NCBI GenBank assembly: GCA_003990765.1 | Contig: RBNJ01000038.1 | Coordinates: 1 to 48,374 of the forward strand | DNA: 48,374 bases | Origin: Jimgerdemannia flammicorona | Lineage: Eukaryota | Direction of reading: 5' to 3' | Shown: piece by piece, positions 3,677 to 37,339 of the stretch | How positions within the stretch are numbered: position 1 is the first letter of the stretch | How the letters are laid out: each line of letters starts with the position of its first letter | Position numbers and translations under genes: made by a program | The notes under the pieces: model-generated | Told to the model about the DNA's origin: nothing | Database searches by the model: none | Seen by the model: only the letters and a program-made list of their open reading frames with translations

Positions 3677-3707
3677 TAGGAATAATGTTAAATATCAATC
3701 CCAGTCT

Positions 3708-8982: not shown

Positions 8983-9269
8983 GGATTAGGCAATCTTTCA
9001 TAAGGGTTAGGCAGCCATTTTGTGCAGGTTGGGCAGTCTTATGTGGGGGGGTTGGGCCGGGTGCCTCTTATGTAGCACTAGCTTAGCTGTTATGCAGGGC
9101 CCTACTGGCCCCCGGCCCTGCTCTGTAGTGCTGCTGGTGTGGTGCTGCGGTGCAGGGCCAGAGTGCCCATGGGACCCGAACCAGTGACTTCAACTGCCGG
9201 AAATATCCTTCAACCACCAGAAGCACCCTCCAACCGCCAGAAGCACCCTCTGCCCCAGACTCCTTGGCG

Positions 9270-9735
9270 GCTTAGGGCTGCCCCTATGCCACTGGCGGAG
9301 GGCTGCAAATTTTGCATGCTCCCTCCACCTGTCCTGCCTGTCCCAGACACTTGCGGCTTGGGGCAGCCCCTTGCTGCCAGCAGAGGGCCACAAATTTTTG
9401 CATGCTCCCTCAACCGACCCTGTGCCTACCAACCGACCCTGCCCACTGACCTGGGTGCTGACAGCTTAGGGCTGCCCCTTGCTGCTGGCAGAGGGCCGCA
9501 AATTTTGCATGCTCCCTCCGCCTACCCCCCCGACCCGGACACTTGTGGCTTGGGGCTGCCCCTTGCTGCTGGTGGAGGGCCACAAATTTTGCATGCTCCC
9601 TCCGCTGACCAGCCCACTGACCACTGACCCACTGCCCTCTGACCCACCGATCTGCCCACCGACCTGCCCACCGACCTGGGCACTGGCTGCACCTTGCTGC
9701 TGGCTGAGGGCCGCAAATATTGCACACTCCCTCCA
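9270..9735. repeat. GC-rich ~55-75 bp direct repeats (about 5 units) between the two convergent genes of the hAT element
   Basis: Recurring unit GGGCTGCCCCTTGCTGCTGGCRGAGGGCCRCAAATTTTGCATGCTCCCTCC, interspersed with short CCGACC/CTGACC repeats. Confidence 0.85.
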
Positions 9736-9869
9736 CCATTGCTGCCAACTCCGCCCCACTTTGGCTGCCAACTCTGGGCTGAGGTCTCAGGTTTTTTTTT
9801 CCTTTTTTATTATTTTGAAAGATATTAAATATTCCACAAGGCCAACCAACTTATCTACAGACCTGCCAA

Positions 9870-12450: not shown

Positions 12451-12554
12451 GTGTGTTTGTGTGTTTGCATGTTTGCGTGTGCATGTGTATGCGTGTGTAT
12501 GTATGCATGTATGTGTATTGTATTATGGACGTGTCCGGCATATGAGTTATGTAG

Positions 12555-12970
12555 AGGATTTGGATTGGAGGATTTGGTTGAAGGATTCAGATGAGGATTC
12601 AGATTGAAGGATTCAAATTGGAGGATTCAAATTGGAGGATTTGAATTGGAGGATTCAAATTGGAGGATTTGAATTGAGTGATTTGGATTGAGTGATTTGG
12701 ATTGAGTAATTCGAATTGAGTGATTTGGATTGGGGTAGTTCGGATGGGTGATTCAGATGGGTAATTCGGATGGGGCAATTCAGATGGGGCAATTCAGATT
12801 GAGTGATTCGGATTGAGTGATTTGGATTGGGGTAGTTTAGATGGGTAATTTGGATGGGGCAATTCAGATAGGGCGATTCGGATTAAATCTGAGTTGATTC
12901 AGATGGCTTCAGATTTGAGATTCGAATCAAACCATCATGTGATGAATCGAATCTGGATTTGATTCAAATT
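12555..12970. repeat. hAT subterminal tandem repeats (~15-bp GGATTCAAATTGGA / GTGATTTGGATTGA units)
   Basis: Directly visible tandem array next to the right TIR. Related motifs occur at 6615-6750. Confidence 0.85.
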
Positions 12971-13334
12971 GACTTGTTCAGAGCACTATATACAACCATC
13001 AGTACCAACCCTGGAACTTAGTAGTTTTTCCTGTCCTGGTATTTTATTTTAGTTATTGTAGCTTTATATCTTAGCAATCATTGAATTATATTTTGTATAA
13101 ATACCTCTCTTATTTTCTCTGAAATAAAGTCAGTCAAGTTCACTTTTATATACTTCCTTGCAAGCAATCTAAGAGATAACAAGATAGTTTAAAGATAAGA
13201 AGTTTGAGGACTATAAGACCTTAGGAAGGCACTCCAATAAGAACTTGCTTATAACAAACTTGAGTTAGTCTAAGAGATACATCTTGAAGAGAATCTGACA
13301 TATTTGAAGGACTCAGTGACCACTATATAATAAT

Positions 13335-13690
13335 ATTTAGCTTATACTAGTAGATTATTTATTTTGCAACAGAATAAGAAAACAGTTATAAGAATTATAC
13401 TAAAATAGAAAGTAACTATAATTAATATAAAACAAAGTTATAAAAAGATATAAATATTAGACAAGAGGCAGAGCATTAAATATCATCCTCACTCCTTCAA
13501 TACTCTCACTTCTATCAGATAGTCTGATGAGGCCAGCTCTTTCCAAGTAATATAGAGAGACTCTTTGACCATATTAAGGTTACTATATAAGGAAGAAATC
13601 ACTACTCTGAGGCTCTTAACCTCACTAGTTAGAACTTAGAATATTTTGTTTTCAACTGATAGAAAATTATTGAGAGAGCCTATCAGATCA
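13335..13690. repeat. ~350-bp interspersed repeat, copy 1 of 3 (others at ~18803-19182 and ~22812-23174)
   Basis: All copies share TAGCTTATA..GATTATTT..CAACAGAATAA..GACTCTTTGRYCATATTAA..CTTAAYCTCACTAGT. Confidence 0.75.
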
Positions 13691-14788
13691 CTAGTATGAC
13701 AAACCAAAATATATCACCTGAATTATAACTTAGTCAGATGATGTGAATACATAGCATAGTAACCAGCAACCATTGCTGTAGAAAGCTGTATAAATAGCCA
13801 GACTACTAAATAAGGTATACTTGTACAAGACCTGTACACCCATGCAAGATCTGCACACTTGTCATAGATAGTAATCTATAATTAGCAACATAGTAATCAG
13901 ATAGCAACCACAACTGTATAATACCCCAGAGATAGGAGTGAATAAACCTCAATCTGAAAGTCTGAATTCAAAGCAAAAGACAAGTCTGCCTATTATACTT
14001 TGAGAGATATGTCTGCCAAAAGCCACTTGATCTAGAAAGGATTGCAATACTTAGGAGAAATACCCACTCTACAGCCACTGCTAGGAGATTGTGAGCATTG
14101 GTTCCCCTTTCTACTCTGGTCCACTTTCTGATACAAAGAATGAGTCCATTTTTGGTTTACTTGCCAGATAAGCCTGAAGTTTGCTGCCAAGTTTAAGGAG
14201 AACTTCACTATCATTTCCAAGTTATTCGCTATATTCCCAGAAAGCCTAAGAGAAAGCTGTCTTGCATAAGCCAGTCTCTGATGCAACTTCACAGTAATCT
14301 GTCATATAAATGAAGCCAGTTTTTGATATAACTTTGCCAAGAGACTCTTTCCCAAAGCTGCCAGTTGTTTGTATTCCCAGAAGAGCCCAATTTGGAAGAA
14401 CTCACACCATCTGAGTTATTTCTCAGTTAAAGCTGCCAATTCAGGAAGAATCTGCATTATCTACTATTCTCAAGTTATCCACATTCTCAGTTGAAGCTGC
14501 TGATTCAAGAAGAGTCTGCACCACCCAAGTTATACAACATCTGAGTTATTTGTTCCCAGTGAGTCTGGTATAGAGAATCTGCCACCAGTATTATTCCCAG
14601 TTATTCAAATTATCCACACCATCTAAGTTATTATTCCCAGAAGTCTGCTGATTTAAGAGAATCCATGCCATATCAAGGGGTTCACTAGAGTGGCAATAGT
14701 TACAGACCCAAGTGGCCAGTCCAAGTAGCCATATACACTTCCATAGTAACTTAATTTGGAGAAATCAGTAACATGTGATAAATGAAAA

Positions 14789-14789
<1 letters not shown>

Positions 14790-14829
<40 letters not shown>
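14790..14829. repeat. (AAT)n microsatellite
   Basis: Direct observation. Confidence 0.95.
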
Positions 14830-14830
<1 letters not shown>

Positions 14831-14860
14831 CAAAAACTCAAGGATGATAGGTCTCAAGAA

Positions 14861-16908
14861 TTAGCTCAATTGATGCTCGCACATATTGAAAAAATTCAAC
14901 TGTCTTTGCATTGTCACCATTATCTAAAATCTGCCAAAATGAATCATGAAATCTCTCTGTTATCTCATTCATTTCCAACTGCAAATTCTCAGTCTCTCTC
15001 TGCTCCTTGGTCTCAAACTCATAAACTTCAACTATTTCATGATGCTCATATACTGAATATCCAGCCTCACAAATATATCTTGAAAACCTTGCCAGGCATG
15101 CTCTGTGAGTAGCTTTAGTGTCCTGTGAAAATGCTCATAAAAAATGTATCAACATGGTATCAAGTAATGCATGAAAAATCATCAATGACACTCAGCATTA
15201 ATCAATCCTGGTGGGGCTTTCTCTTTCTCAATTCATTTTAGTACAAAAAGGGCCTCATCAGTAAGAAGTCGCTGGAGAGGATAGGGGAACTTGTGGATTT
15301 CAGTGAGGACAGCATCATCAACAGCAGCAATAGAGAGTTTATAGGTATGAAATTGCAATTCTGCTCATCAGGCATCCTGACTCTTCTTGGTATCAAGCTT
15401 GACAGTCTTTATACATGCACTTGTAGTTTATTAAATTATAAAAATCAATTAAATAATTATTAATATTAAAATTATAAAATCAATTAATAATAAAAAAAAG
15501 TAAACATACCAATTAAACCATGAGAGGATGATGTAGTAGTCTTGAGCTCACTGTGAAATGATTCTACAACATTGGTAGTTATTACTTGAAACAGAAGTGA
15601 TGAGTGTTGGTGGGTCCATAGTGCCCACTTTTCTATATTATTAACATAGTTCTTTATAATGTAATTTTTGATGGCTGAAGTGGGAGCAAGCTCAATTGCT
15701 TGCTGTACATTCTCCTTACAGTTGGCTTTAGTTCGTCAATGCATAGCCAGAATCATCTTATTGCAGACAGCATCATCATATATCTTTGACATCCATGTTT
15801 GCATAATATGAACTATATATAAAATAATAGTACATTCCATCTCACCAGCTTCTAGATCTTGAAAGACCTTATTGATAGCATTAGCTTCAATGACACTCTG
15901 ATCAGGAAGAATATATTGAGGACTCCAGTTGGGTGAAAACCTTTGAACTATCTTGAGTATCTGAGTTATGATAGTACTGTCTTCTCCATCTACAAAGAAG
16001 TATCCACCTATACACTAGCATCCAATATTATCATGAATGTATAAGATAAACAACTGCCAGTCCCACTTATTTGTCTTATGTGTTGAGTTGATAAGTGTCA
16101 GCCAGCCATGTTTTGAAAGTTTTTGAGATTATTCCGAGATAGCAAAAACAAATCCTTGTTTAGGCAGAATGAATGTAGAAGATGAGATAGAAGATGAGGT
16201 AGAAGATGAGGTAGAAGATGAGATAGAAGATGAGATAAAAGATGAGGTAGAAGATAAGGTAGAGGATGAAGATATTTCTTGAATGTGATATCTATTTTCT
16301 AGTAAAAATTTAAGAGTCTCTATAATGTCTGTCTTCAAATCTTCACTTCCAATGAGATGTATATTAACTGGTCTCTGCACAACTTGTTAAATGTTTGTAA
16401 CATCCTTTATTCAAAGATATTATGCTCCACTTCCTTCACTCAGTTTTGCTATAGCACTTTCTTTTACTGATGTAGTAATGTCTGGTGGCCAATAGCTCTT
16501 TGCAGCCTCCTCAGTTATAAGATCAAGCAATGCCTAAGACTTCTTGAGCATATCAATCTCATCAATTGGATGAGTATGAATAGCAGGTCCTGGGCCAAAT
16601 GGTTCAATATGCACAGTCTGTGTAGAAGAGATTCTAGTGATTCGAATTTTGGTAGAGCAGAGATTAGGGTCATGAATATTTGTTTTTCTATACTTCTCAG
16701 GTTCGACACTCTCTTGACATATACTGGACTGATGATACTTTGAGAGGTGATACATACATGCTGTCCATTTATCTCTCTTTGCTGGAAAACTATCTAAATA
16801 ATGACTCTAAACATTGGTGACAAGTGGTTAAAGTTTATCAAATTCTTCTTGTGAAATTTCAAAGGAGTTTGAAATGTTAAAAAGGTGGAGGTGATTATGT
16901 TGAGCCAT
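14861..16908 (-). pseudogene. MULE transposase (WRKY/FAR1-like zinc finger, DDE core, SWIM finger)
   Basis: LCSTKIRIT..HTH; INSTHKTNKWDWQLF; WSPQYILPDQSVIEANAI; TTNVVESFHSELK; SWIM remnant ECH**FFMHYLIPC*YIF; AT-rich intron at ~15420-15509. Confidence 0.88.
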
Positions 16909-17059
16909 TGAATAAAGTGAAAAAGATTTCAAGTTTGCAGTTTATTATAAACAACTAAGAGTCCTTATATATAATACAGAATACAGTCTGAGTAAGTAAG
17001 AAAATAAAAGAAACAATTGAGAAAAGAGGTTGGAGATTTCTGCACCATCTTGGCACTAT

Positions 17060-17402
17060 GGCAAACAGCTGAGAGTCCTTATTATAAAGAGCACAGTATG
17101 AGGCAAAGTCTGAGTAAACAAAAGAAACAATTGAGAAAGAGAGAAAAATATTTCTGTGCTGCCTTGGCACTGCAGCTGGCTGTGGCTATAGCTATTGAAT
17201 GGTTCTTAAGTTCATATACCTTATGAGCTGGTGGCAAACAGCTGAAAGTCCTTATTATAAAGAGTACAGTATGAGGCAAAGTCTGAGTAAACAAAAGAAA
17301 TGATTGAGAAAGAGAGAAAAATATTTCTGTACTGCCTTGGCACTGCAGCTACAGACTGCAGCTATTGAACAGTTCTAAGTTCATATGCCTTATGAGCTGG
17401 TG
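17060..17402. repeat. ~173-bp tandem duplication in the MULE 5' subterminal region
   Basis: GGCAAACAGCTGARAGTCCTTATTATAAAGAG...CTTATGAGCTGGT occurs twice, with a partial third unit at ~16950-17060. Confidence 0.85.
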
Positions 17403-17944
17403 CAACTTGAGTCATGTGTATTCAGCCACTTGTGTCAGCCACTTGGGTCTGTAACTGTTACCACTCTAGCGAACCCCCATATCAAGTTATCTGCCAGAAA
17501 TTGCATACTTTTGGAGATTGCCACCACCAAAGAAGGAAACTATTAAATTGACAGATTATTATACATAAGGAATCTGCCACACTACACAAGATCATTATGC
17601 AGAAATTGTATAAGGAGAACCACTAAATTACCAGACCATCACACACAAAGAGATCATTATGCTATATAGAAATCACCTGCTACTCAAGAAGGAAACTGCT
17701 CATGCTATATATGAAATTCTACCAATTCCCAGTTGACCAAAGAAGGAAAAGACATATATACCCAGAGAACTGTCCAAATAAGGAAACTGCTCACAGACAT
17801 CCAGCTTTGACTATTATACCACTAAATACCAAGGACCTCAGGAATCTTAGAATATTTTGTTACTTTTAACAAAGTAACTGGGGGCTCAAGCCAAATTACA
17901 TCAATCCCCAACCTTGTAATTTGCCTCCATTGAGCTAGGTACAT

Positions 17945-18666
17945 TATACTAGCTATCTAGAAATTTGACATAAATATAAGATTGGCCACTATATCTGCCA
18001 ATACTGTCAAGAACTCTCCTCTGAGCAAATTATAGACTAGACTAATCTAGATAGATATAAATAAAAACTTGCTAAAATAATTTATCAAATCTTCTAACAT
18101 ACTCTCTTTAATATCTCTAACCTCAACTTTATATAAACTATAGACTTCCAGAACCTCTTCTCTGAAGTAGATGAGCTAGAAGCAAAAGTAGCTGCTAAGG
18201 TCTATTTCTAAATTCTTTTTAAGACTAAAGACTATAAACTCTACTAGAGCTCTATTCTGAATAACAACTCTGATCAATAGACTTAAGGTCTCTCTAATCT
18301 ATTTGAAGAACTACTCATTTAAATAGATATCTCAAAAAATAAAGAGTAAGACCTATATATAGATAATTCCAAATATATCAAATAGAGATCTCTAACTCTA
18401 TCTCAAATAACTCTAGATGAGTAAGTTCTATATATATATTGTTTAACTATATTAGATAGAGATCTCCAACTTTATCTCAAATAACTCTAAACTAGTAAAA
18501 ACTATTTAAAGATCTTATTGGCTTTTCTATACTCAATATTGATATCTCTACTGATTTATATACTAGCTAGATAGATACTAATAATAAGAATAAAAATGAT
18601 ATCATTTCTCTAGTTCTCAACTTTAAGATAAGTGAAATAGAAATTAATATAAATATTAATTTCTAA
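17945..18666 (+). pseudogene. Divergent paralogue (type B) of the LTR-encoded protein, copy 1
   Basis: YLEI*HKYKIGHYICQ..LAKIIYQIF*HTLFNISNLNFI*TIDFQNL..ELEAKVAA..ILNNNSDQ*T*GL..DLIGFS..LVLNF aligns along the length of ORF 21106-21939. Confidence 0.7.
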
Positions 18667-19183
18667 ATATAACAAAGTATAAATGATAATTATATAATCT
18701 CATTTATCTTAATTTATCTTATTCATATATTACTTATTTATAATATTATTATCAAATCATATAATTATCATTTGTAGTATATTGTGAATGTAATTCTTAT
18801 TAAGTAGCTTATACTTATAGATCATTTATTTTATAATAAAATAAAGAAATAAATATAAGAAATACATCAGAGTAAGAAGTAGTCATAATTAATATAAAGC
18901 AATAGTTACAAAAAGATATAAATATTCAATAGGAGGTAGAGTACTAAATATTTATCTCTACTTCAGAAATCTACAAAGATATCTCTTCAATACTCTTATA
19001 TCTATCAGACAGTCTACCAAAGCTGATCTCTCTCAAGTGATATAAACAAACTCTTTAGCTATATTAAGATAGTAATATAATGAAGAAATGTCCACTCTGA
19101 GATCCTTAATCTCACTAGTTAAGACCTAGGTTATTTTGTTCTTAACTATATACTAGAAACTTCTCAAAAGAGTCTATTAGTCT

Positions 19184-19834
19184 ACTAGCTATTTGAAAAT
19201 CTAGTATGAGTATGAAATTAGCCACCATATCTACCAATATTATCAAGATCTCTCTGAAGAATAATTGCCAACTAGATTAGTCTAGATATATAGATATAAA
19301 TAATAACTTACTAAAAAAATTCACTAAATATTCTGACATACCTTCTATATAATCTCTAATCACAACTATATATAAACTACTAATTTTCAGAACCTCTCTT
19401 ACTCTGAAGTGGATAAACTAGAAGTAAAGATAACTGCTGAGGCCTATTCTCAGATCTCTCTTAAGACTAAAGATTGAAGTTCTATTAGAGATCTATTCTA
19501 AATAACAACTTCAACCAATAGATTCAGGGCCTCTCTAATCTATTCAAAGAACTACTTATCTAAATAAATATCCTAAAGAATACAGAATAAATCTCATATA
19601 TAAATAGTACTAACTATATTAAATAGTAATATCTAACTCTACTCCAAATAATCTCAAATTAGTAAAAAATTATTTTTAGATCTTATTAACTTTTCCATAC
19701 TTGATATTAATATTTCCACTAATTCATATAATAGTCAATGAGATACTGATAATGAGGATGAAAAGGAGGTCATTTCTCTAGTCCTCAACTTCAAGATAAG
19801 TGAAATAGAAATTAATATAGATATTGATTTCTAA
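19184..19834 (+). pseudogene. Divergent paralogue (type B) of the LTR-encoded protein, copy 2
   Basis: Nucleotide-level homologue of 17945-18666, with the same ending CTCTAGTYCTCAACTTYAAGATAAGTGAAATAGAAATTAATAT..TTCTAA. Confidence 0.7.
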
Positions 19835-20524
19835 GAAGAGAGAATATAATAAAAATTATATTATAAATAAGTTTGATAATATATTGTAAATAATAATTAT
19901 ATAACTAGATAATAATATCATAAACAAATAATATATAAGATAAGTGAGATAAGTAAAAGTAAGATATAAAAAATAATATACTGAACTCTCTAAATACTAG
20001 AGTTATAGCAAATAAATTACTTAACTATATATTACCTAATTAATAATTATTCATTTTTTAAGTAAACAATATCGCAGGTTATTTGTTTTGCAAACAAATA
20101 ACCAAAGCAGTTATATATATATTAATTTAGTCATATATACTTAGCCAAAATTTGTAAATTATTACTTAGCTAATATAAATAAATACTCTAGCAATTATAT
20201 TCAAAATAAACTAGCTCTTAGTTTAGTATAAAATATAATATATATTCCTCTGAGTTCTTAGTAATGATATCTAAGTTACTATAGTATTTCTGACTAAACT
20301 CTAGAAGCCTAGCTAACTTCTATCAGAACTAAGAACTAATATATATTTAAAAGAAACCTATTTTAAATCTGAATTATAAGAGATTTAGTCTATATATAGT
20401 AAAGATAAGTCCCTTATAACTATGATTACTAAAGTAGAACAATACTTTTATTCTATTATAAAGAAATAACACTTCCTCAATCTAAGTTATTACTATTAAG
20501 TAAAAGAATAATTAAAAGGCTTCT

Positions 20525-20526
<2 letters not shown>

Positions 20527-20558
<32 letters not shown>
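20527..20558. repeat. (TA)n microsatellite
   Basis: Direct observation. Confidence 0.95.
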
Positions 20559-20561
<3 letters not shown>

Positions 20562-20793
20562 GTCTTTAAGTAATACCTTATTATTGTCACGTAGTGGTCA
20601 CTGAGTCCTTCAAATACGCCAGATTCTCTTCAAGGTGTATCTCTTAGACTAACTCAAGTTTGTTATAAGCAAGTTCTTATTGGAGTGCCTTCCTAAGGTC
20701 TTATAGTCCTCAAACTTCTTATTTTTAACTATCTTGTTATCTCTTAGATTGCTTGCAAGGAAGTGTGTGTAAGTGAAACCAGAACTGACTGAC

Positions 20794-20826
20794 TTTATTT
20801 CAGAGAAAATAAGAGAGGTATTTATA
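20794..20826 (-). promoter_or_regulatory. LTR TATA box (TATAAATA, 20826-20819) and AATAAA poly(A) signal (20799-20794)
   Basis: TTGTATAAATACCTCTCTTATTTTCTCTGAAATAAAGT is conserved, with minor changes, in all four LTR ends (13093, 20826, 23565, 25070). Confidence 0.6.
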
Positions 20827-20890
20827 CAAAATATAATTCAATAGTTGCTAAGATATAAAGCTAAATATAAATTCCAATAACTAAAACTAC

Positions 20891-21092
20891 TGAGTTCCAG
20901 GGCTGGCATTATTTAGTACCACATCAAAATACCGGTGCTGGAACAATTTCGCATCACCTCAGAATACCGGTGCTGGCATTATCCAGTGTTACATGAGAAT
21001 ACTGGTGCTGGCATTATCCAGTGTTACATGAGAATACTGGTGCTGGCATTATCCAGTGTTACATGAGAATACCGGTGCTGGCATTATCCAGT
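20891..21092. repeat. 35-bp tandem repeats in U3 between the ORF stop and the LTR TATA box
   Basis: AGAATACYGGTGCTGGCATTATCCAGTGTTACATG at 20961, 20996, 21031 and 21066 (partial), plus two diverged units. Confidence 0.9.
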
Positions 21093-21105
21093 ATAACAAA
21101 GAACT

Positions 21106-21939
21106 TTAGAGCAGAAAGTTCAGGATCATGGGAGCTTCATCATCATCATTACTGAAGGAGATGAGGTCCGTGAATTCGTCATGTAGGTCACACGTCTCGC
21201 ATACTTCGTCATTTTCGCGTGCCTCGATATTGCGCGGGATGACATCATCGATGACGTCATTACATTCAGGTGTGGCGGGGAAATCGGGAACAAGGTCTGA
21301 AGCTCTCCAGTCTATGAGGTTCTTTTCCACAAAATAGGGGACAAATGTGGGGTCTTGGGGGGATCTAACCCGGATGCTTGGGCCTTGGAATACTAAGATC
21401 AATCCTTGCAGAAATTGGTCTGGGTTGTCCTGAAGGATAGGGTGCCAGAAGTCTTCTACTTCTTCACTGTTGAGGGTGATGGTGGACTGGGCCTCTGTAG
21501 CTACCCTGGCTTCTAGTACATTGATGCGGCGGGATGACAGGTCTCTGAAGTCTGAGACTCTAACATACTCCAAGTTGGGGATCGACCATGGTGCATGCCT
21601 GAAGATCTGATGGATCTTCTTTGCTGTCCTTGCCTCACGTAGGTCTATGGGGGTAGCATCTTGTAGCTCTTGAGGGCTGGCCTGTGGGAACTCCCGGCAG
21701 AGGAGGTTTTCTATTTTGTACTCCTGCCATATTTGGAGGCATTCGGTGGCAATAGTGATCCTTGTTTCCATTTCACGGCGGTAGAGGATAAAGTGATAAG
21801 GGTCTGCAGTACCCAGGTTGACGCTAGGAGTCCTTCTTGAGCGGGTCCTCATGGCTCTTCTGATGTCTTGAAACATCCTTTCCTCGACCGAGATACCTTG
21901 ATGATTCCTTGACCTTGAGGTTTGGTGGGCAGCAGGCAT
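21106..21939 (-). CDS. LTR-encoded 277-aa protein of unknown function (basic N-terminus, conserved core, acidic tail with CxxC)
   Basis: Uninterrupted ATG-to-TAA ORF in a good context (CAAAATGC). TATAAAA lies ~80 nt upstream, CpGs are retained, and the protein is conserved in divergent paralogues. Confidence 0.8.
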   Translation of the reverse strand: MPAAHQTSRSRNHQGISVEERMFQDIRRAMRTRSRRTPSVNLGTADPYHFILYRREMETRITIATECLQIWQEYKIENLLCREFPQASPQELQDATPIDLREARTAKKIHQIFRHAPWSIPNLEYVRVSDFRDLSSRRINVLEARVATEAQSTITLNSEEVEDFWHPILQDNPDQFLQGLILVFQGPSIRVRSPQDPTFVPYFVEKNLIDWRASDLVPDFPATPECNDVIDDVIPRNIEARENDEVCETCDLHDEFTDLISFSNDDDEAPMILNFLL

Positions 21940-22018
21940 TTTGTTTGTGGTAAGTCTTTGAGCTATTTTGGGATTGGGGTTCTTGTTGGTGGCTGCTACT
22001 GCAGTTCCTTGATCCTTC

Positions 22019-22025
22019 TTTTATA
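22019..22025 (-). promoter_or_regulatory. Putative TATA box for the LTR-internal ORF
   Basis: TATAAAAG ~80 nt upstream of the ATG, conserved in the copy at ~26187-26193. Confidence 0.5.
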
Positions 22026-23174
22026 TTCTTCAGGATGCTTGTGCTGTGGTCACAATGACTCACAGTTGGTCATCATTGCTCATCTCACATACCGTATGAT
22101 CTTCTTGTACTCTGATCTGGTGGCTTATAAAGAAAGGCTGTCTCCTGTGCTGATGTCATCATTCTGGGGTCACCGTTACATTATCTAAGTTATTCAAGAA
22201 TATAAGAGGGGTTAAAATATATAAGTATTATTATATAAAAACAGCCAAGTGGTTTTTTCTAATTAAGTAGAAAGATTATTCCATCTATAATATAATCTGA
22301 GAAAAGAAAGAAACCTTAGAGAATATATAAGAAATACTATAGGAGTATATAGATACTCTTACTCTTCAATAAAGGAGAGAACTACAATTTTAATCTTTTA
22401 AATAACTAAAGCTAAAGAGAGAATGAGAAGAAAATAGACTTATATTTATTCAGAATATATGTATATATTAATAATGAATACTAATAAAAAAATTATTATA
22501 TAATCTAAAGAAATAATTAAATACTATAGCTAGTAAAAAGAAATATATTAACTATCTATATATTACTACTTTTAAATTATTAATAGCAATGATACCCAAT
22601 CAGAGAGTATTTTATTAGAAAGTTGACAAAGAATATAGTACTAATAGTTCTCTTAAAAAGAAATTACTAATAGAGTGCAAACTTCCTCCCAGTTGGTTAA
22701 AATAATACTAAGGCCCTTATTCTATATAAGGTGGTCAAATCTTGCTCAATATACTAAGAAAATTTTATTAGTATCTAGTAATATTTGGCTATTTATATAT
22801 AATTAGTATATATTTAGCTTATATTAGCAGATTATTTTTTTGCAACAGAATAAAAAAAAACTATTATAATAATAAGATCAAAATAAGAAATAGTCTTAAC
22901 TATTGTAGAATAGTATCTGAAAAGAAGATATATATAAATATTAAATAAGAAGCAGATTATCAAATATCATCTCTAGCTCAGGAAATCTATAAAGATATCT
23001 ACTATTACAAAACTATCTACTGAAGTCAACCTTTTCTAAGTGATATAGAAAGACTCTTTGGTCATATTAAATCACTATATAAGAAAGAAATCACTATACT
23101 GAGGTCCTTAACCTCACTAGTCATAATCTAGAACATTTGTTCTCAACTATTGTAAAATTATTAAAAGAGCCAAT

Positions 23175-23300
23175 TAGTACTCTGAATGAGTCAATTTAAT
23201 CCAGATGAATTCAGATTAGATTTGGATTGAATTCTATCTGGATCTACTCAGATGGAATTCAAATTCTATCTGAATTAATTTGAATCAACCATTGTTTTGA
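23175..23300. mobile_element. Isolated terminus of a related, older hAT element
   Basis: TAGTACTCTGAATGAGTCAATTT resembles the TIR of the element ending at 12988 (TAGTGCTCTGAACAAGTCAATTT) and is followed by GATTC-type repeats. Confidence 0.6.
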
Positions 23301-23765
23301 TTTCTAAATTAGACAATTAAATATTATTATATAGCGAGTGCTGAGTCCTTCAAATATATCAGATTCTCTTCAAGGTATACTCTTAGACTAACTACAAGTT
23401 TGTTATAAGTAAGTTCTTATTGAAGTGCCTTCCTAAGATCTTATAGTCCTCAAACTTCTTATCTTTAAACTGTCTTGTTATCTCTTAGATTGCTTGTATG
23501 AAATTGAGTATAAATAAACTAAGAGAACTGACTTTATTTCAAAGAAAATAAGAGAGATATTTATACAAAATATAATTCAATGGTTGCTAAGATATAAAGC
23601 TAAATATAACTTCCAATAACTAAATAAAATACTAGAATACAGAAAACTTCAGTTGTAAGTACAAATTTGAGTATCTATATAAATAGTTATATAAGTTCAG
23701 AATGCCAGGAGATTTTAGTTGTATAAGAAAAGGATGCCAGAAGATTTATATGTTATAAAGAACTT

Positions 23766-24790
23766 AGAGTGAGTTCTGGTACCTTCAGTAATAGAGTAGA
23801 ATTCAGACTCCTCATAGTATTCTTCATCATCAGTATCACTAATCTCTTTGATAACTACTGTATTGATTTGTTCTCTGGTTCTAGTAGTATTACTTGATTG
23901 GGCTCTGTGCTTTGTTTCAGTTATGTAATTCTTTACATAGTAGCCTTCTTCTCTATATTTGAAGTAAATAATATTATATTCTTCTATAATAACTGCAAAC
24001 CTCTATACTGGTCTCCTGTTGATACTTTATACTTCTCTAACAATATCACTAAGATATACAGTCATCTCAGCAAACTGCTTGGTAAGTTCCTCTACTGGGT
24101 CAGCTTTGACTATCTTGGGGGTAGGTGGGAATAGTTGTCTATTAATAACTATAGTGGGTATGATACTAATTAGCTTTGATGGCTCTATCTTAATACTAGT
24201 TATTTTTTTTATTGAGTGTTTGGTAGAGTGTCTAGTAGTCTAATATCTCTATACAAAGACCACTTTCTGATCAAGAGTCAGAGCAGCTGGGGTAGATTGG
24301 ATTGCTAGGGCAATTTCAGAATAGACTCCTTTAAGGAAGGTTGAATTAGCTATTTGTTTCTTGAGGACATTATCATAGTCAGTCAAGACAATCTGGTAGT
24401 AGATTCAGATATAAAATAAGTTGGGATCTTCACTAAGTCTCTGGCAGATAGTATTGAGTTGATCTCTTTAGTATAATATATAGTTCTGAGGAAGTTCTTC
24501 ATATTGGTAAGTTTGGTTGTACCAATATTAGTAATGGTGACTGCATTGAACTTATCTCTGGCAGGTCCTCTGAGGCTGACTGGTAGAAGAGCCAATTATA
24601 TATCCACAGTGAGAGCTCATATGATAGCAAATTGTTCAAAGTTTTAAATAAAGATTAGGATTGACTCTTCAGTAGCAAATCTATAGAATATAGAGAGATA
24701 TATTTCTATCTTGTCTTGAATATTTGCAGAGATGACTCTTGTAGTCAGAGTAGTTGTTATGGTAGTTGTTTATTTTTCAGCTTGAGAGTG
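23766..24790 (-). pseudogene. gag with a decayed CCHC zinc knuckle
   Basis: LALLPVSLRGPARDKFNA; KADPVEELTKQFAEMTV; IYFKYREEGYYVKNY is a CFKCGEEGHY..NC knuckle after G-to-A and C-to-T transitions. Confidence 0.75.
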
Positions 24791-24808
24791 AGAGATTCAT
24801 CTTGAATC

Positions 24809-24826
24809 ACCAGCCAATAGGTACCA
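24809..24826 (-). other. Putative primer-binding site TGGTACCTATTGGCTGGT
   Basis: TGG begins 3 nt after the 5' LTR end. The cognate tRNA cannot be identified by eye. Confidence 0.6.
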
Positions 24827-25237
24827 AGTTGTTATATAGTAGGTACTGAGTCCTTTAAATATATCAGATACTCTTCAAGATATATCTCTTAGACTAACTA
24901 CAAATTTGTTATAAGCAAGTTCTTATTGGAGTATCTTATTAAGATCTTATTGTTCTCAAACTTCTTATCTTTAAACTGTCTTGTTATCTCTTAGATTGTT
25001 TGTATGAAATTGAGTATAAGTGAACTGAGGGAACTAACTTTATTTCAAAGAAAATGAGAGAGGTATTTATACAAAATATAATTCAATGGTTACTAAGATA
25101 TAAAGCTAAATATAAATTCCAATAACCAAATAAAATACTGGAATACAGAAAACTTCAGTTGTAAGTATAAATTCAAGTACCTATATAAATAGTTGCACAA
25201 GTTCAGGATGTCAGTAGATTTAGATGTTACAAAGAAC

Positions 25238-26103
25238 TTAGAGCAGAATGATCAAGACTCTGGAGGCTTCATCTTCATTACTATCATCAAGATTAGAGGT
25301 CAGAGACAGGATGTCTTCAAAGAAAATGAGGTCAGCAAATGTTTTGTCTATCTCACATATATTACATATGTCATGCATTTCATGTGCTTCATGCATGTCA
25401 CCAATTAGTAGGATGACATCATCACTGGTGACATCATCATGTATGGCAGTAGTGGAGAGAGTGAGAAGATCTAGGGCTCTCTAATCTATGACATTCTCTT
25501 CTACAAAATAAGGGATAAATGTGAGATCTTGGGGAGGTCTAATCTAGATACTGGGGCTTTAGAATGCTGAGATCAATCCTTGCAGAAATTGATCTGGATT
25601 GTCCTGGAGGATGGGATTTAAGAACTCTTCTATCTCATCACTATTAAGGGTGATGGTGGATTGAGCTTCTGTGGCCACCATAGCCTCCAATGCATCTGTA
25701 CAGCAGGCTGACAATTTCTTGAAGTCTGAGACTCTGGTATACTCCAAGTTGGGGAATTGACCATGGTATATACCTGAATCTTCTTGGCTGTCTTTATTTT
25801 ATATATATCTATAGGGGTGGTATCTTATATCTCTTGGGGACTGGCCTAAGGAAATTCCTGACAGAGGAGGTTTCCTATTTCATATTCTTGCCACATCCAG
25901 AGATATTCAGTAGCAATAGTGATTCTTGTTTCTATTTTATAGTAGTAGAGAACAAAGTGATAAGAATCACTAGTACCTAGGTTGAGGCTAGGAGTTCTTC
26001 TTATATAGGTCCTTATGGCTCTTCTGATGTCTTAGAATATCCTTTCTTGTACTGAGAGGCCTTGGTGGTTCCTAGACCTTGAGGTTTGGCAGATAGTAGA
26101 TAT
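25238..26103 (-). pseudogene. Decayed copy of the LTR-encoded protein within the 5' LTR
   Basis: EYTRVSDFKKLS..LEAMVATEAQSTITLNSDEIEEFLNPILQDNPDQFLQGLI; start codon mutated from ATG to ATA. Confidence 0.85.
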
Positions 26104-26399
26104 TTTATTTATTGTGAGTCTTTGAACTATTTTGGAGTTTTGTAAGTCTTATTTGAGTTGCTATTACTGTAATTTCTTAGTCTTTCTTTTATATTTCTTG
26201 AGATGTCTATCTTGTGGTCATGATGACTCATAGTTAGACATCATTGCTCATATTATAGCCTGGGTGAGTTATGCTATATAATCTTCTTATACTCTGATCT
26301 GATGGCTTATAAGGAAAGGTTATCTTCTATAATGATATCATTATTCTGAGATCACTATTACAATATATATATAAGTATTATGATACTTTATTCTATTAA

Positions 26400-28885
26400 G
26401 TTCTATATTTAGTAAAATATCCTTATACTATATTAGTAGTAAACTAATTTACATAAAGAAGATATAGACCAGAAATCTCTGACAAGACTCTTAGTCTATA
26501 TCTGTCTTCTACTTCATCCTCTGATTATCTAATACTATATAATCCTAGCTTTTTTATATAATATCCTATATCTTTCTCAGAGCACCTAATTGATTTCTCT
26601 TCTCTTGATATTATCACCTTTATATCACTTCTTAGAATAACTACTATTACTTATCTATTAACTCTCTAACCCCTATCTAGCTTTCTATTATAGATTATTT
26701 ACTAATAAGTGACTTTTAGGATTCAGACACCAAGGATCTGCCCTACTTTTCTCTATATATCACCAGTCTCTCCTACTAACCTCCTCCTAACTCTCACTCT
26801 GATAGTATTACTCAACCTCCTACTGCTAGAGTTTCAATATCTCTTCAAATACTACTAATAACTTTCTATATCTAGGCAGACTACTAAGATATACTCTAAT
26901 ATCTATACCACCTCTTTTTAAAGCTCATAATTATGATAGCTATCAGCCTTCATCCAATCTATTCTGTATCTCAGTATCATATTCTTCCTCAGAAACTGTC
27001 ACTATATTACTTAGTATCTAGGAGATATTATTCTATATAAAGTATCAGTCAGTATTAAGTTTCTCCCCACTCTTATGTCTTACTAATCTCTGTCTTCTAC
27101 CAGCTAACTAGCTATCTCTCAAGAGACTCTACTCTCATCCACTCTATTGTCTTCTCTAATGTATACTTCTCTATACTCTTATCTCCAATCTGGAGCAATT
27201 TCAGTCTCTACCAATTCCTCTTAAGGTTCTCACTATCCTCTACCTCTGGCCCAATCAGTCTTATGACCAATCAGACCTCTACCATGCCTCACTAAAAGCC
27301 ATTATACTATAACTAACTGATGCTTTCTACTTGAAGCAAATCTCTCAAATCCTTTTACTCTTTATTATAGGGGTAGAACCTGATCTTCTAATTATTTATA
27401 GTCAGTCTGTTCTATTCTTCCTCTCTAAATTTATCTCTACCAGCCCCTCAGAACCTTCAGCTGTCTCTAAAAGTCCACCAGATCCAGATCTCTATCAGCT
27501 ACTTAGATCACCAATATCTCTCAATTAATTTACAGTTACTTCTCTCTCTATAGCTATTCTTCAATAATCTTCTTCAGCCTCCTCACTACCTATCTAAGAA
27601 AGTCCAAATGATAGATCAAATACTATAGCTTCAGCAGCTAATAAATGTTCAAAACTATTACTCTGTCTATTAAGAAGAAGTTTCTCTCAATTCTATAAAC
27701 TGAGAACTAAATCTTTAGATATCTAACAGTCTCTTCTATAGTTATAGTATATCTAAACCTTTCTTTCTTACTAAGATTAGTTCTTATCTTTATTGTCTTA
27801 CACTTTTTCCAATTCAGCTTTGTCCTCACTACTCTTTTATACTTTTCTACTCCATTTTGTAAAATTTTTACATCTTTCTCACATTTCAATCTAACTACCT
27901 ATTATCTGCAAAAGCTTCTAGCATTCAGACCATCTCTCTCATCTACAGTCAGTTAGACACTCTCTCAGCTAAGCTAGTATAGATTCTAAGGATAGTATAT
28001 AAAGAAAAAAAAAGAGAGAATTATCTTGTGAGACTCTTCTTCCCAAGACAAACTCCTGGCCCACTCTATTTATTTATCAGAATTACCACTCAATAGCTCT
28101 ATACCAAACTAATCATCCTTCTGACCTCTATACTATCAAGCCTCACTCTCCACAGTACTATCTCTAAATAATCTCACTATACTCTATCACAGGCTTTCTT
28201 TTGATTTAAAAAAGACTATCTGCCCATCTACTTAATAGCTCCTGTAATTCTCTAGAACATTTTATACCCAGGCTATACTATCTTTAATCTATCTTCTCTT
28301 CACAATCTCATACTACTCCTCTCTAACAAATCTGTTAATTTACTGCTATATTCTTTCTACTAAGATAATTGAGATCAACTAGTTATCAACAATTAGCAGT
28401 ATAATTAGTCTCCAGTTATGCCAAACTCTTCTATCTCCTTTCTCCTTATAGAGCAGAGAGACTAAACTCAAGGGTCTATTGTCAACCCAGTAGCTCTCTT
28501 CAAATACATGATTTATCATCTCAACCAGCTATTCACTAAACTCTACCTGAAACTCCTTTTAAAATTTCTATGGTAGTTTATCTTCTCCTAGTAATAATTC
28601 TGTCTGTATCTTCTCTAGTACTTCAAGCACCTCTAGAGATATCTTCTCTATCACTGTAATATCCAACTCTGGCACCTCTACCATCTACCTATCTCTCACC
28701 AGATTACCATTCTCAACTTCCATCTTCCAACCTTTCTTATATCTCTCTTTATTCTATCTGAGAGTTTACTACTATATATCTAGAAATCTCTTTAAGTATA
28801 TCTGCAATCCCTAAGACCTCAATGCCATTATCTCACAATATAGAAGCTTAGCTACATATATCACACTCTTCTGATCTTTAGAACT

Positions 28886-28935
<50 letters not shown>

Positions 28936-31900
28936 GTTACTTAGACTTTACTATTTATTATCATTCTATCTAATATAAATATATTACCCCAGTCCTCCAC
29001 CCCACCCTATATCTAATCTCCCTAAGAGGGGCTCTCTCTACTCTCTTATACTTAAAGGCTATCTTATTATCTTCCACAACTACTCTCTTCTTACTTAGTC
29101 TACAAATCTTCTCTACTAAGTAGTACTATTGATCTCTCTGCAGCCCCTATCTCAGCTATCAACTTATTAATACATCAACCATCAACTCTTTCTATCTTAC
29201 TAGCTACTCTCCCAAACTCAATCTTCTCTCTTCCTTAAAAAAAAAAAGTCAGTATCCTGCCAATCTCACTCAGATAGCCAGAGTTCACCTAACTATAAGC
29301 CACTCATTATCAATACCCCCCACCAACTGAGCTTTCAAATATCTCCATCTACTCCATTCATCTACCTTTCTTCTCACTACCCTCAGACAAGACCCAATAG
29401 CTAACTAGAAATTATTAAGTATCTTATACTCCCTAAGTCAATATTCTGGCATCTATATAAATTCCCCTTCCTGCTCTATATTAAAGCACGCCTCATACTC
29501 AAATTGTCTCTCTTCTATTAAATAGCTAGAGAAAAAGTTAAGCATAATATTCTTTCTCAGCAAGCATCACTATACTACTCAGAACTTAGGTAGCATCTAA
29601 TGTCACACCTCAGCACTCTATATCTAGATTCCATTTCAGTTCCACCCTTTTCCAATATCTACTGTCTACCAGCTATTGGGCCATGAATCCTATTCTAACT
29701 CTCTCCAGCACTCCACTCTATCACCCATGTCAAAGTCAATCAGTAGGGTGCTCTCCAACAATATGCAGTCCTATCTCTATATTACAGAACCCTATGGCAT
29801 CTCTCCCTCAGCTCCCTGTCAGTGAAGACTGATATAGTGTGCCCCATCAACTACTCTCTACTAGAATCTCTTATGTTACATGTGCTTGCTACTCCTAAGC
29901 CCAACTAAGGACAATAGATTCTCAGATAAGCTCTATGGTAAAAACATCATCTTCCAGATCTTTTGTATCAGAGATACTCAGCCCCCCCCTCTCAGTTCTA
30001 CAGTTCTCTTCAGCCACCATACTCACAGACAATGAAGCCTCTTTAGAAAGTCCACAAGTCTAAGAACTCCTCTCTCCACTAGTAATGACAGGATCTCCTA
30101 TCCAATCTGGCTTCTTCTCCCTGTTCAGATCTAGTCTTTGGTCAGCTTCAAAAGCTACTTCACTACCCAGGTCAGAAAGTCCAAGTAATATACTAAGTAA
30201 CACAATTTTGGAAGTCAGTAAATATTCAGAATTGAGATATGGTCTGTCAAAGAGATATAGCAGCCTCTCTAGCTTGGCAGGACCTCTCTCTAAATAGCAA
30301 CTCACTGTTCTCACCAAGTCCTAGGCAGTACAGATCTATAAACAGAAAGAAAAATACCCAGATACTATACAATACCCCCAGTCAGGATAATTATTTCAAT
30401 GACATCCCCACCTACCAGACCATTACTCAGCACTATCATCTCACACTTGTGCCAGTTGAGTTTCACCCCTAAGTATGCCTCATACTACTTCACTGATGCC
30501 TGAAGTGCCTCTACATTAGCAATTGACCTAAGGCCCACCACTATGTTGTCTTCCAAGGCTCCTATCTTTCATACAATCCCAAATACTGAGAGCTCTGCCA
30601 CCTTGCACTGAATCCAATCCATCAATAGTTCTAAGGACAAAGCATACAAATAGGGGATAGAAGGTCCCTTTATAGAACTCCTCTATCTAGAGAGAATGAC
30701 ACTCCCTGATATCTTTTGTACATGAGTACTGCCCTACTCCCTCCCAGTAGACTGATCATTACCTCTTGGAAAAGCTGAGAGACACCAATTCTATCCAGTA
30801 TCTCTGCCAACCAGACTCTTTAGACATGGTTATAGGCCTTCTTCTGATCCAGGAAGACCAATCTCCCATCCAGCCCAGATGCCTAAGCTCCCTTGATAAT
30901 GCTATAAACCCAAGCTGTATCATTCCTAATAAGCTGACCCCCAATAAAACCCCACTACTCCTCACTCAGGACTTGCTGAGCCATCTTCTGCAGCCTTACT
31001 ATTATCACCTTAGTGACCAATTTTCTGTCTATGTCCAGGAGCATGATCAGCCACCAGTTCTTCCAATCCTCTCTCCTGCTCTTATCCTTATATAGCAGTG
31101 TGACCAACTCTAGATCCTGCTCTCTCACCCACTTCTCTGACTGTAATATTATATTACAAAGTGCTATCATCTCTCCTAGCACTTCAGGGACCTCTATCAT
31201 CTTCTTCTAGAAGTCCCAGGGCAGACTATTCTCACTCAGTATAGTACCTAGTGAAATTACAGCAAGAACCTAAAGAATCTCCTCCTCTTGAACTAGTAAT
31301 ACCAAATCACCAAGCCTATCTACTTTGGATATCACTCCTCCAAAGTGTTTACAATAGTAGCTGCATCAGCCCTACCCTCCTCCTCACTCCTCAAGCCACT
31401 CCACCTCTCCTTTAGTGATCCCAGAATATTTTGGGAGCTATGTACCAATACCCATCTGAGCCCAGTACTCCCTCCCATCACTGCCTCACCCTCCTTGCCT
31501 TCAGGAGTTGAAAAGTACTTAGAGGGCCTCTCTCTCTCCTCCAGCCCCTGCCAGCATAGCTATATAGCCATTCCCTGCACATGGGTCTCCTCCTCCTCCT
31601 TCAATATCTGTTATAGCTCAGTAACCTTCAGTCTAGCTTACAGCAGCCTTCAATTCTCAACTCTTTCCAAGGACAAAAGATCTGTTCAATTCTTCTGAAG
31701 CCAGACCAATCTAGCAGATGCCCAGGCCACTCTCCTCTGCTGCTGCCTCCCAGCCACCTTTCTAGCTTCACTCCAGTAGATCCTAGCAGTCTTCTTTAAC
31801 CTCACTCATTGAATAGCCACAGAAGTGCTCTCATAAACCCACCTATCCACCTTATAGCTAATATCCTCAGCCCAAGTATTCTACAACTCCTTCTTAGCTT

Positions 31901-34900: not shown

Positions 34901-35150
34901 AGCTCCAACTATAGCTCATTTACTTTCTCAGCCAGCTTTCAATGGTTTTTCTCTATACTCTGTCTCTTTTATCTTCACCAACTGACAATACAGCCTCCTC
35001 TCTAGCCTTCTCTCTCTGTTCTATCATTTCTTCTCTGCTATCTTTCTAATATCTCTCTAATAGACTTCTGCTATATGTTTAAACCTTCTCTACTAATCTA
35101 CTATAGACTACTCACCTTTCTTCTATCTTATTACCTCTGATTCTTATTAT
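26400..35150 (-). mobile_element. Older, distinct L1/Tx1-like LINE ORF2 remnant (~26400-28887 and 34791-~35150), split by LINE copy B
   Basis: GERPTKFL (~34820), VWHNWRLIILLIVDN (~28410), FLNQKKACD (~28200), EAFADN (~27910), TKLNWKKCKT. Outer boundaries are approximate. Confidence 0.72.
28888..34790 (-). mobile_element. L1/Tx1-like LINE, copy B (full length, heavily decayed)
   Basis: 45-nt poly(A) tail (T run 28888-28932). ~16-bp TSD TGATCTTTAGAACTTC (28872) / CAACCTTCAGAATTTC (34791), differing only by transitions. ORF1 ~34712-32690; ORF2 32660-~29010. Confidence 0.92.
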
Positions 35151-35199
35151 AGAATTGAGACTCAGCTAGTACTGGATCTAGTGGTTCTTAATAATTTGT

Positions 35200-36400: not shown

Positions 36401-36660
36401 TCTTAAAGAAAATTTGAAGGAAAATATCTGAGCTTTATTTAAGCAGAGAATAAAAATATTTATAAAAAATCTAAAAGAAAGATCCAGAAGATTTTTGGAA
36501 AAGAAGAGAAAGGTTAAGAAATAGATTCTTGATAAAGATAACTAATAGAATTGTACAATGTTTCAAAAAGTTCAATGATAAGATACTTAGTATTAAGAAA
36601 AGACTAGAGAAAAGATGTAAAAAAATACTAAGACTAAGATATAACTGTGAAATTTTTACA

Positions 36661-37335: not shown

Positions 37336-37339
37336 TCTT

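Follow-up and report, generated by a model that had tools for sequence, protein, structure and literature searches.

Accessory genes of long-terminal-repeat (LTR) retrotransposons are normally described as internal to the element, and they are lost when it collapses to a solo LTR. The present analysis concerns a solo LTR of 1596 bp from Jimgerdemannia flammicorona that appears to carry a conserved gene for a 277-residue protein within its own length. It is located on contig RBNJ01000038.1 (assembly GCA_003990765.1), of which 48,374 nt were examined (positions 1 to 48,374 of the forward strand); this whole stretch is called the window below. A preliminary description, made from the sequence without database searches, had proposed that the LTR holds the gene in its unique 3' region (U3) and leaves it behind in the solo state.

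The accessory open reading frames (aORFs) of plant and rotifer elements (env-like frames, gene23 of Grande, ORF1 of Ogre) are portrayed, in the accessible part of PMC7264820, as conserved, of unknown function, present in most copies and sometimes equipped with their own promoter. According to the same part they are internal to the element, in most cases located between pol and the 3' LTR, and the phrases “in the LTR” and “within the LTR” occur nowhere in it (0 occurrences). The open reading frame (ORF) of the window is likewise a conserved accessory frame of unknown function; however, it lies inside the LTR, should be present twice per element and outlives the formation of solo LTRs. For the fungal crapaud LTRs, a variable U3 and lengths of 339-443 bp are given in the available portion of PMC10787394, which reports no ORF in the LTR. 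Small-RNA genes are located in the LTRs of Cassandra, Helenus and Ajax, which are non-autonomous LTR retrotransposons (available parts of PMC10886601 and bioRxiv 10.1101/2023.07.14.548913). As far as those parts describe them, these elements share with the present locus an independent transcription unit in the LTR that is duplicated at each insertion and left in solo LTRs; theirs are RNA polymerase III sequences that resemble small RNAs (5S and others) and act as promoters, whereas a TATA box of the RNA polymerase II type and a gene for a 277-residue protein are found here.

By analogy, the closest system in architecture is the sag gene of mouse mammary tumor virus (MMTV). In both cases, as far as the available accounts of sag extend, a complete ORF of ca. 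300 codons is placed in an unusually long LTR (>1.2 kb); it has the sense orientation and precedes the LTR promoter (a putative one in the window), a position from which the gene would be duplicated at both ends and kept by endogenous copies. MMTV sag is reportedly expressed from spliced or other viral promoters, whereas the ORF of the window has its own conserved TATA box and leader inside the LTR. The two proteins showed no similarity in sequence or fold (Pfam, PDB profile, Foldseek and VIA-align), the host here is a soil organism, the element is a retrotransposon without known env, and the function of its ORF is unrelated to vertebrate immunity. A looser parallel is offered by VANC, which is said to be an orphan protein encoded beside subfamily-specific tandem repeats in the non-coding DNA of its transposable element, and which reportedly binds these repeats and lifts silencing. 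VANC is encoded by VANDAL elements of Arabidopsis and is reported as an anti-silencing protein in the accessible part of PMC5735166. The likeness, an orphan transposon protein next to variable tandem repeats, serves as a working analogy only: VANDAL is a DNA transposon, not an LTR element, and Pfam gave no similarity between VANC and the ORF of the window. Searches of the open-access literature gave no description of a protein gene carried within the LTR of an element other than a retrovirus; one may be in print elsewhere.

The 1596-bp unit occupies positions 20585-22180, starts with TGTCAC, ends with GTTACA and has TTAT on either side. Its sense strand is the minus strand of the window. The parts are as follows (L001 is a metagenome contig introduced below):

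20581-20584, no strand: target-site duplication (TSD) TTAT, left, read directly and equal to 22181-22184
22181-22184, no strand: TSD TTAT, right, read directly
20585-22180, minus strand: solo LTR, 1596 bp, sense 5' TGTAAC...GTGACA 3', delimited by its termini and TSD; both boundaries recur in the copy at 24830-26362 with other flanks
22018-22025, minus strand: TATAAAAG, upstream TATA box, 86 nt 5' of the ATG
21940-21959, minus strand: 20-nt leader directly 5' of the ATG, corresponding to L001 355-374
21106-21939, minus strand: intact 277-residue ORF of an orphan family (304 residues from stop to stop), with a basic N-terminus, a helical core and an acidic C-terminal tail
20902-21098, no strand: 35-bp tandem repeats just 3' of the stop codon (Tandem Repeats Finder: period 35, 3.8 copies, 97%, at 20961-21092)
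20819-20826, minus strand: TATAAATA, second TATA box, read directly; putative promoter of the genomic RNA, by its position past the tandem repeats
20794-20799, minus strand: AATAAA, 20 nt 3' of the second TATA box; putative poly(A) signal

Each part that the preliminary description had assigned to the unit (the TG..CA ends, the TSD, a TATA box, the 277-residue ORF, the 35-bp repeats, a second TATA box and AATAAA) was thus found in place. Read along the minus strand, the order is TATAAAAG, the ORF, the 35-bp repeats, TATAAATA and AATAAA, after which ca. 200 bp are left to the end of the LTR. Two more degenerate copies of the 35-bp repeat are present from 20902 on. The number of copies differs between units (1 in 24830-26362, ca. 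2.5 of a 32-bp unit in 23325-23769 and ca. 5.6 in the solo LTR), and public contigs jump by 70-109 bp within this region of the solo LTR. The region 3' of the ORF has the classical layout of LTR control sequences, in which tandem repeats of variable number are followed by a TATA box and a poly(A) signal. The TG...CA termini form a short inverted repeat in the solo LTR and have decayed to TGTAAT...TATAACA in the copy at 24830-26362. The TSDs, TTAT at the solo LTR and ATAT at the element occupying 23325-26362, fall in the range of 4-6 bp, and at 4 bp each is weak alone in AT-rich DNA. The ORF, the upstream TATA box, the leader and the other signals of the solo LTR are all undamaged.

The identity of the unit as an LTR was established from the sequences that adjoin it. 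Logan contigs of four public runs, from three studies in all, were placed on positions 20300-24900. Runs X1 and X3 are soil metagenomes, and X2 and X7 are from one organism (“organism A”); for X1, 2263 pieces were aligned, 294 of them at ≥99% likeness. Junctions were counted among the 24 listed of 219 loose contig ends, and the counts are therefore given as minima. At the 20585 end, at least 8 X1 contigs extended into CCAATGGGCACCAAG, which is the flank of copy 24830-26362 minus two transitions. On the sense strand these contigs read ...GTGACA-ACT-TGGTGCCCATTGG, so that a primer binding site (PBS) beginning with TGG is located a few nucleotides past the 3' end of the LTR. At the 22180 end, extension into CTTCCTCCTGAATAAGG... 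was found in at least 6 X1, at least 4 X7 and at least 1 X3 contigs (the last with 209 nt). The sense strand of this junction is ...CAGGAGGAAGA immediately 5' of TGTAACGG, i.e. a polypurine tract (PPT) directly preceding the start of the full-length LTR. Within the window the PPT had 0 matches because the 3' LTR of the only element present is truncated. No transfer RNA (tRNA) genes were found in the window, and no tRNA partner was matched to the PBS. The opposite orientation of the LTR was rejected, as it puts non-purine sequence at the position of the tract and no TGG at that of the primer site. Because PBS and PPT junctions are located at the two ends of the unit, the whole 1596 bp, ORF included, behaves as an LTR. 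The unit at 20585-22180 is accordingly a solo LTR of a tRNA-primed LTR retrotransposon, with its sense on the minus strand, and the earlier claim that it is an LTR was borne out.

Further copies were located by a blastn comparison of the 1596-bp unit with the window, which gave four further pieces. Two of these belong to one decayed element and two to a third, interrupted copy:

24830-26362, minus strand: 5' LTR of the decayed element, with a broken ORF (blastn, 74-86% identity across the whole unit; homology to the ORF in two frames)
24814-24826, minus strand: PBS TGGTACCTATTGG, 3 nt past the end of the LTR copy 24830-26362; its TGGTGCCCATTGG form is found in the X1 contigs above
23770-24813, minus strand: decayed gag-like region, identified from its translation, with the zinc-knuckle pattern YFKYREEGYYVKNY at 23966-23925
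23325-23769, minus strand: truncated 3' LTR, from the ORF stop codon to the LTR end only (blastn; LTR homology resumes at 23769)
5797-6597, plus strand: third LTR copy, ORF part (blastn), cut at 5797 by the 5' end of a long interspersed nuclear element (LINE) and at 6598 by a hAT transposon
12997-13332, plus strand: third LTR copy, terminal part (blastn)

The minus strand past copy 24830-26362 reads through the LTR end (...TATAACA), ACT and TGGTACCTATTGG into ca. 1 kb of decayed coding sequence. The preliminary description had this copy followed directly by a PBS and a gag with a zinc knuckle, and this holds on the minus strand, left of 24830, where TGGTACCTATTGG and YFKYREEGYYVKNY are found. 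The pattern YFKYREEGYYVKNY has CX2CX4HX4C spacing with Tyr at all four Cys/His positions, and a single C-to-T-type transition separates each of these Tyr codons from a codon for Cys or His. When the pattern was relaxed to [CY]x2[CY]x4[HY]x4[CY], the six-frame translation (96,744 residues) gave only 3 matches: the decayed gag at 23966-23925, a gag of a gypsy element just 5' of its protease, and a poly-Tyr run. Pfam gave no match for the decayed frame at 23770-24813, and the label “gag” for it therefore rests on position and motif.

Between the solo LTR and copy 24830-26362, 366 substitutions were counted, and C>T or G>A changes toward that copy make up 190 of them. The sites changed in it comprise 39/70 CpG, 77/239 CpA, 40/179 CpC and 34/227 CpT. 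This copy shows repeat-directed C-to-T decay; the solo LTR is unaffected by such decay and is thus young. The element at 23325-26362 consists of a full 5' LTR, the PBS, the gag-like region and then the last ca. 450 bp of the 3' LTR; neither pol nor a PPT was found in it. ATAT on both sides (23321-23324 and 26363-26366) marks it as a single insertion. Since two equal LTRs result from one round of reverse transcription, the short 3' copy must be a product of later deletion or template switching and not the native form. At the point of truncation (23770-23790 as compared with 21106-21130), the acidic C-terminal end of gag is joined to the last codons of the LTR ORF, and the two tails are alike over ca. 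30 nt around the stop codon (..GAAC..CTCTAA.GTTCTTT..). This likeness may reflect a microhomology-mediated deletion or a deeper kinship of the two tails.

Other stretches were considered as interior or parent of this element and were rejected. The DNA right of 26362 is not element interior; it is a LINE fragment (recognized by tblastx; Pfam alone gave no match). Nor is element interior present in the 6.4 kb that separates the pieces of the third copy, which a hAT transposon with an 8-bp TSD occupies. The gypsy element at ca. 37400-42908 is not the parent of the LTR, as its gag is unlike that beside copy 24830-26362, and a transition-blind alignment of the unit with 34780-37500 scored no higher than the controls.

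Relatives of the 277-residue protein were sought in a word-indexed search of 5.8 billion proteins (5 relatives), an exhaustive search of 1.84 billion representatives (5 relatives) and a profile search (12). With cluster members, 15 proteins were obtained (P0001-P0015), all on contigs of 567-4848 bp and none with a Pfam domain. They form at least three subfamilies whose identity to the window protein ranges from 91% down to ca. 21-30%. Common to them, down to an identity of ca. 27-40%, are the start MPxxR and the blocks WxEYEI, AKKIHQxFRHxPW, WNPILQDNPDQ(F/W)LQ, F(Q/E)GPxI, PQDPxxxPY and DLIxF, together with a C-terminal xLNF. Other genome and viral contig collections gave no match to the 20-nt leader or to the protein family. 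The scan of metagenome contigs returned a single locus, the 1535-bp contig L001, and this is the only homologue for which DNA was at hand. In a comparison with L001 over 264 aligned codons, 110 residues were identical, with pN 0.415 and pS 0.725; after Jukes-Cantor correction, the nonsynonymous rate (dN) was 0.60 and the synonymous rate (dS) 2.5 (saturated), and dN/dS was at most ca. 0.24. This ratio had been proposed beforehand for comparison among young copies, where a value near 1 together with the lack of a transcript would have spoken against a gene; the value obtained here, with L001 in place of young copies, speaks for one. Among the contigs, 10 of the 40 listed differences (the best-supported of 412 base differences) fall in the ORF. 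Eight of these 10 are synonymous third-position changes (the binomial chance of at least 8 of 10 in third positions is ca. 0.003, calculated by hand), and the other two are L182S and A103T, the former leading to the Ser that homologues have at the same site. That 304 codons in a row are open by chance is very unlikely. The pattern of conservation indicates that the ORF is a conserved gene under selection.

A derivation of this gene from gag, pol or a host gene had been named as an outcome that would undo the proposal, and nothing of the kind was detected. Pfam returned 0 families for the ORF, P0002, P0007 and P0011, and a family profile applied to the six-frame translation of the window matched copies of the ORF only, with no match in the two gag regions. 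The candidate origin from gag thus gave no signal; the gag copies are decayed, and a distant kinship may exist.

A second, diverged subfamily of the protein is represented in the window by decayed units:

18788-19864, plus strand: decayed unit of the second subfamily, resembling P0006/P0011, with an ORF at ca. 18982-19835; ends imprecise
13333-13695, plus strand: 5' part of a second-subfamily unit, which continues at 17948 past a 4.25-kb insertion

In the split unit, residues 4-70 are encoded in the 13333-13695 part (ORF piece 13495-13695) and residues 69-213 at 17948-18379. Another piece of a second-subfamily ORF is located on the plus strand at 23000-23171. A TATA-like GATATAAATATT was noted ca. 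65-75 nt 5' of the ORF in these units (13333-13695 with 17948 to ca. 18787; 18788 to ca. 19864; 22797-23175). Two of the units follow each other head to tail, and one lies directly against a first-family LTR at the end of the latter. The second-subfamily units are putatively LTR-like.

Outside the ORF, the non-coding flanks of the solo LTR and of L001 could not be aligned except for two stretches. One is TATAAAAGAA, common to both and located 86 nt (window) or 80 nt (L001) 5' of the ATG. The other is the leader, in which 20 of 20 nt directly 5' of the ATG are identical in the two sequences, which represent two subfamilies, while synonymous sites are saturated. Since the TATA box and leader are conserved amid flanks that cannot be aligned, these upstream signals probably belong to the gene and are under constraint. 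The opposite strand of the leader reads ...TGGTAAGTC..., a motif like a consensus 5' splice donor, and the constraint may be on either a sense leader or an antisense signal. Segments 171-205 and 1478-1515 of L001 may represent a sub-repeat, or they may mean that the contig exceeds one LTR length.

The N-terminal 60 residues of the protein have a net charge of +6 and include the Arg-rich RRAMRTRSRR. The C-terminal 70 residues are disordered, with a net charge of -17 and the conserved hydrophobic motifs DLISF and LNFLL; a helical core lies between the two. The preliminary description had not recognized the protein and had suggested structural searches, and these left it without a match: two AlphaFold models were of low confidence (predicted local distance difference test, pLDDT, 49.2 and 54.0), Foldseek against the PDB gave no match at E≤0.001, and a PDB sequence profile gave 0 matches. 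In a wide VIA-align search with the low-confidence model, the best Z was 4.6, within noise for helical models; in the ESM Atlas, the best score was 0.87, to an unnamed cluster and below a meaningful level. A basic N-terminus, a helical core and an acidic tail together are the make-up of many nuclear activators. From this composition and the adjoining variable repeats, it is possible, and tentatively proposed, that the protein is a nuclear regulator (a transactivator or anti-silencing factor) acting in trans on the repeats of its own LTR. Roles in RNA export, packaging or interference with host defence are also possible. The preliminary description had named anti-silencing, transactivation or restriction as conceivable roles. 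The more specific proposal, that the factor recognizes the adjacent 35-bp repeats and is expressed from every LTR, solo LTRs included, is more doubtful. If it were true, the solo LTRs, hundreds in number, would serve as a scattered reservoir of factor genes by which the family, or nearby host genes, would be held open to transcription in a genome where repeats are mutated and silenced, and the system would be the LTR-retrotransposon counterpart of retroviral Tax/Tas and of VANC of VANDAL.

Taken as a whole, the locus is probably best read as a solo LTR with a complete small gene in what is likely U3, and with a logic of two promoters. This reading is built on the observed anatomy, the identity of the unit as an LTR and an ORF that is conserved and under selection; the U3 assignment, the two promoters, expression and function are its predicted parts. 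The small gene, with its TATA box, 20-nt leader and 277-residue ORF, would occupy two thirds of the LTR from the 5' side, and this portion is most likely U3. U3 is copied to both ends in reverse transcription, so that two gene copies should come with every new insertion. Recombination between the LTRs would then leave a single copy with its signals intact, as in the solo LTR. Transcripts from the upstream TATA box would contain AATAAA and end within the same LTR, giving an mRNA of ca. 1.2 kb, whereas those from the second TATA box would start at or after AATAAA and read into gag, such that the 5' end of the genomic RNA would be free of this signal. In retroviruses whose repeat region (R) is very short, the genomic RNA likewise lacks a poly(A) signal at the 5' end.

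Three parts of the preliminary description are affected. The placement of the gene in U3 agrees with an ORF that lies within the LTR in sense orientation, upstream of the block of repeats, TATA box and AATAAA; the assignment to U3 as such is inferred from this layout. The self-contained cassette left behind by a solo LTR is matched by an intact ORF, conserved TATA box and leader, and that it is a working, i.e. transcribed, gene is at this stage a prediction. The delivery of two cassettes per insertion is predicted from the PPT at the start of the full-length LTR in contigs and from the known mechanism of reverse transcription, and not from the element of the window, whose 3' LTR has ca. 450 bp only.

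Several points weigh against the small-gene reading. The only element of the window has a 3' LTR cut to its last ca. 450 bp and no PPT, an element with the ORF in both LTRs was not seen in the window, and no pol is known for the ORF-bearing family. The contigs with PPT or PBS junctions are short (100-400 bp), come from metagenomes or one coded organism, and in no case cover the whole LTR. With respect to selection, dS relative to L001 is saturated, the count of 8 synonymous changes in 10 is from the best-supported subset only, and the protein database consists of called ORFs, which favours intact copies. None of the 20 public runs containing the stretch was recorded as RNA, which is uninformative on expression. 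The proposed function is backed by composition alone, with AlphaFold models at pLDDT 49 and 54. Finally, the ORF could lie in R.

This last point leads to the main rival, in which the upstream TATA box is the sole promoter and the ORF is located in a very long R or leader, as the first cistron of the genomic RNA (of the “ORF0” type). It would account for the TATA box and leader 5' of the ORF being the most conserved non-coding parts, and the second TATA box and AATAAA, just 20 nt apart in AT-rich DNA, could be fortuitous. Against this, variable repeats followed by a TATA box ca. 250 bp from the LTR end constitute the classical enhancer/promoter layout of U3, an AATAAA in the 5' leader would cut most genomic transcripts short, and we know of no R of ca. 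1.2 kb. On balance we consider a long R unlikely, and a gene within U3 is preferred.

Less probable still is that the ORF is a passenger, a captured host or foreign gene that is of no service to the element and appears conserved through recent copying and database bias. LTR elements are known to capture genes (available part of PMC7264820), the family is tiny and has no known domain, and all homologues are on short contigs of unknown context. A passenger would, however, be hard to reconcile with a frame, an MPxxR start and blocks that are kept across two to four subfamilies at 27-45% identity, with the low dN/dS over the deepest pair for which DNA is available, and with the occurrence of two diverged subfamilies in LTR-like repeat units of the window. 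No longer fused form and no stand-alone homologue was found among 8000 scored candidates of 600-2000 residues (0 of 8000; weak evidence). We therefore hold this explanation to be quite improbable.

It had been anticipated that a duplication of only the terminal ca. 440 bp would refute an LTR-borne gene. In such a case the true LTR would be the terminal ca. 450 bp and the ORF would be internal, between pol and the 3' LTR, and the 3' copy of the window element, which begins at the ORF stop codon, has just this form. The junctions point the other way: two window copies that differ in their flanks share the far boundary (TGTAAC..., at 22180 and 26362), a purine run directly precedes this boundary in at least 11 contigs of 3 runs, TTAT brackets all 1596 bp, the full unit with its ORF stands upstream of the PBS in copy 24830-26362, and a long 5' LTR with a short 3' LTR is impossible from one round of reverse transcription. 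A short LTR is thus barely tenable, and 1.6 kb is taken as the length of the LTR. Least credible of all is a chance, non-coding frame in a repeat, to which the lack of a domain and of a confident fold might point, given the 304 open codons, the 8 synonymous changes among the 10 listed, the dN/dS bound and the alignable distant homologues.

A conserved gene in the LTR would be present in two copies per insertion, would reside on the most abundant and longest-lived remnant of the element and could be expressed without gag-pol. If it is expressed, the solo LTRs of this family would be dispersed genes rather than inert scars, and the orphan protein would be a candidate for coping with a host that hypermutates repeats. 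The system is also a concrete one, made up of a single small ORF, a single set of repeats and a pair of TATA boxes.

The remainder of the window is occupied by other elements. LINEs with RVT_1 account for the big repeats A (109-5779), B (29204-34779) and C (42908-48228, inverted), which have ca. 3.3 kb upstream of the reverse transcriptase (RT). The fourth LINE fragment, already mentioned, fills 26363-28887 (tblastx E of ca. 1e-32 to the RT of A, B and C; this copy was also given as 27440-28528), and a 45-nt poly(A) run is found on the minus strand at 28888-28932. Two of the four LINE copies are in minus orientation, and their mutual identity is only 65-68%. The LINE strands have a strong GC skew, ca. 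-0.45 on the plus strand of A and B.

On the plus strand, at ca. 37400-42908, there is a decayed Ty3/gypsy element whose dUTPase separates protease from RT. LINE copy C interrupts this element before the integrase, and the element is unrelated to the ORF-bearing LTR family. Its recognizable parts are:

38056-38097, plus strand: zinc-knuckle pattern of the gypsy gag
38811-39041, plus strand: protease
40302-40649, plus strand: dUTPase
41376-41840, plus strand: RT
42042-42425, plus strand: RNase H

The hAT DNA transposon at 6598-12988, inserted in the third LTR copy, has a Dimer_Tnp_hAT domain on the minus strand and terminal inverted repeats TAGTGCTC; its 8-bp TSD, TATACAAC, is found at 6590-6597 and 12989-12996. 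Most of the transposon is free of decay (GC 43-55%), and it includes tandem repeats of 84 bp (9334-9609) as well as repeats of 14 bp (12583-12883). Another unit is cut by a hAT end of similar kind, which begins at 23176. The 4.25-kb insertion at 13696-17947, which splits the second-subfamily ORF at residue ca. 65-70, gave no Pfam match in 35 stop-to-stop frames. It is mostly undecayed, has a possible ACTAG duplication and includes 173-bp tandem repeats at 17059-17402.

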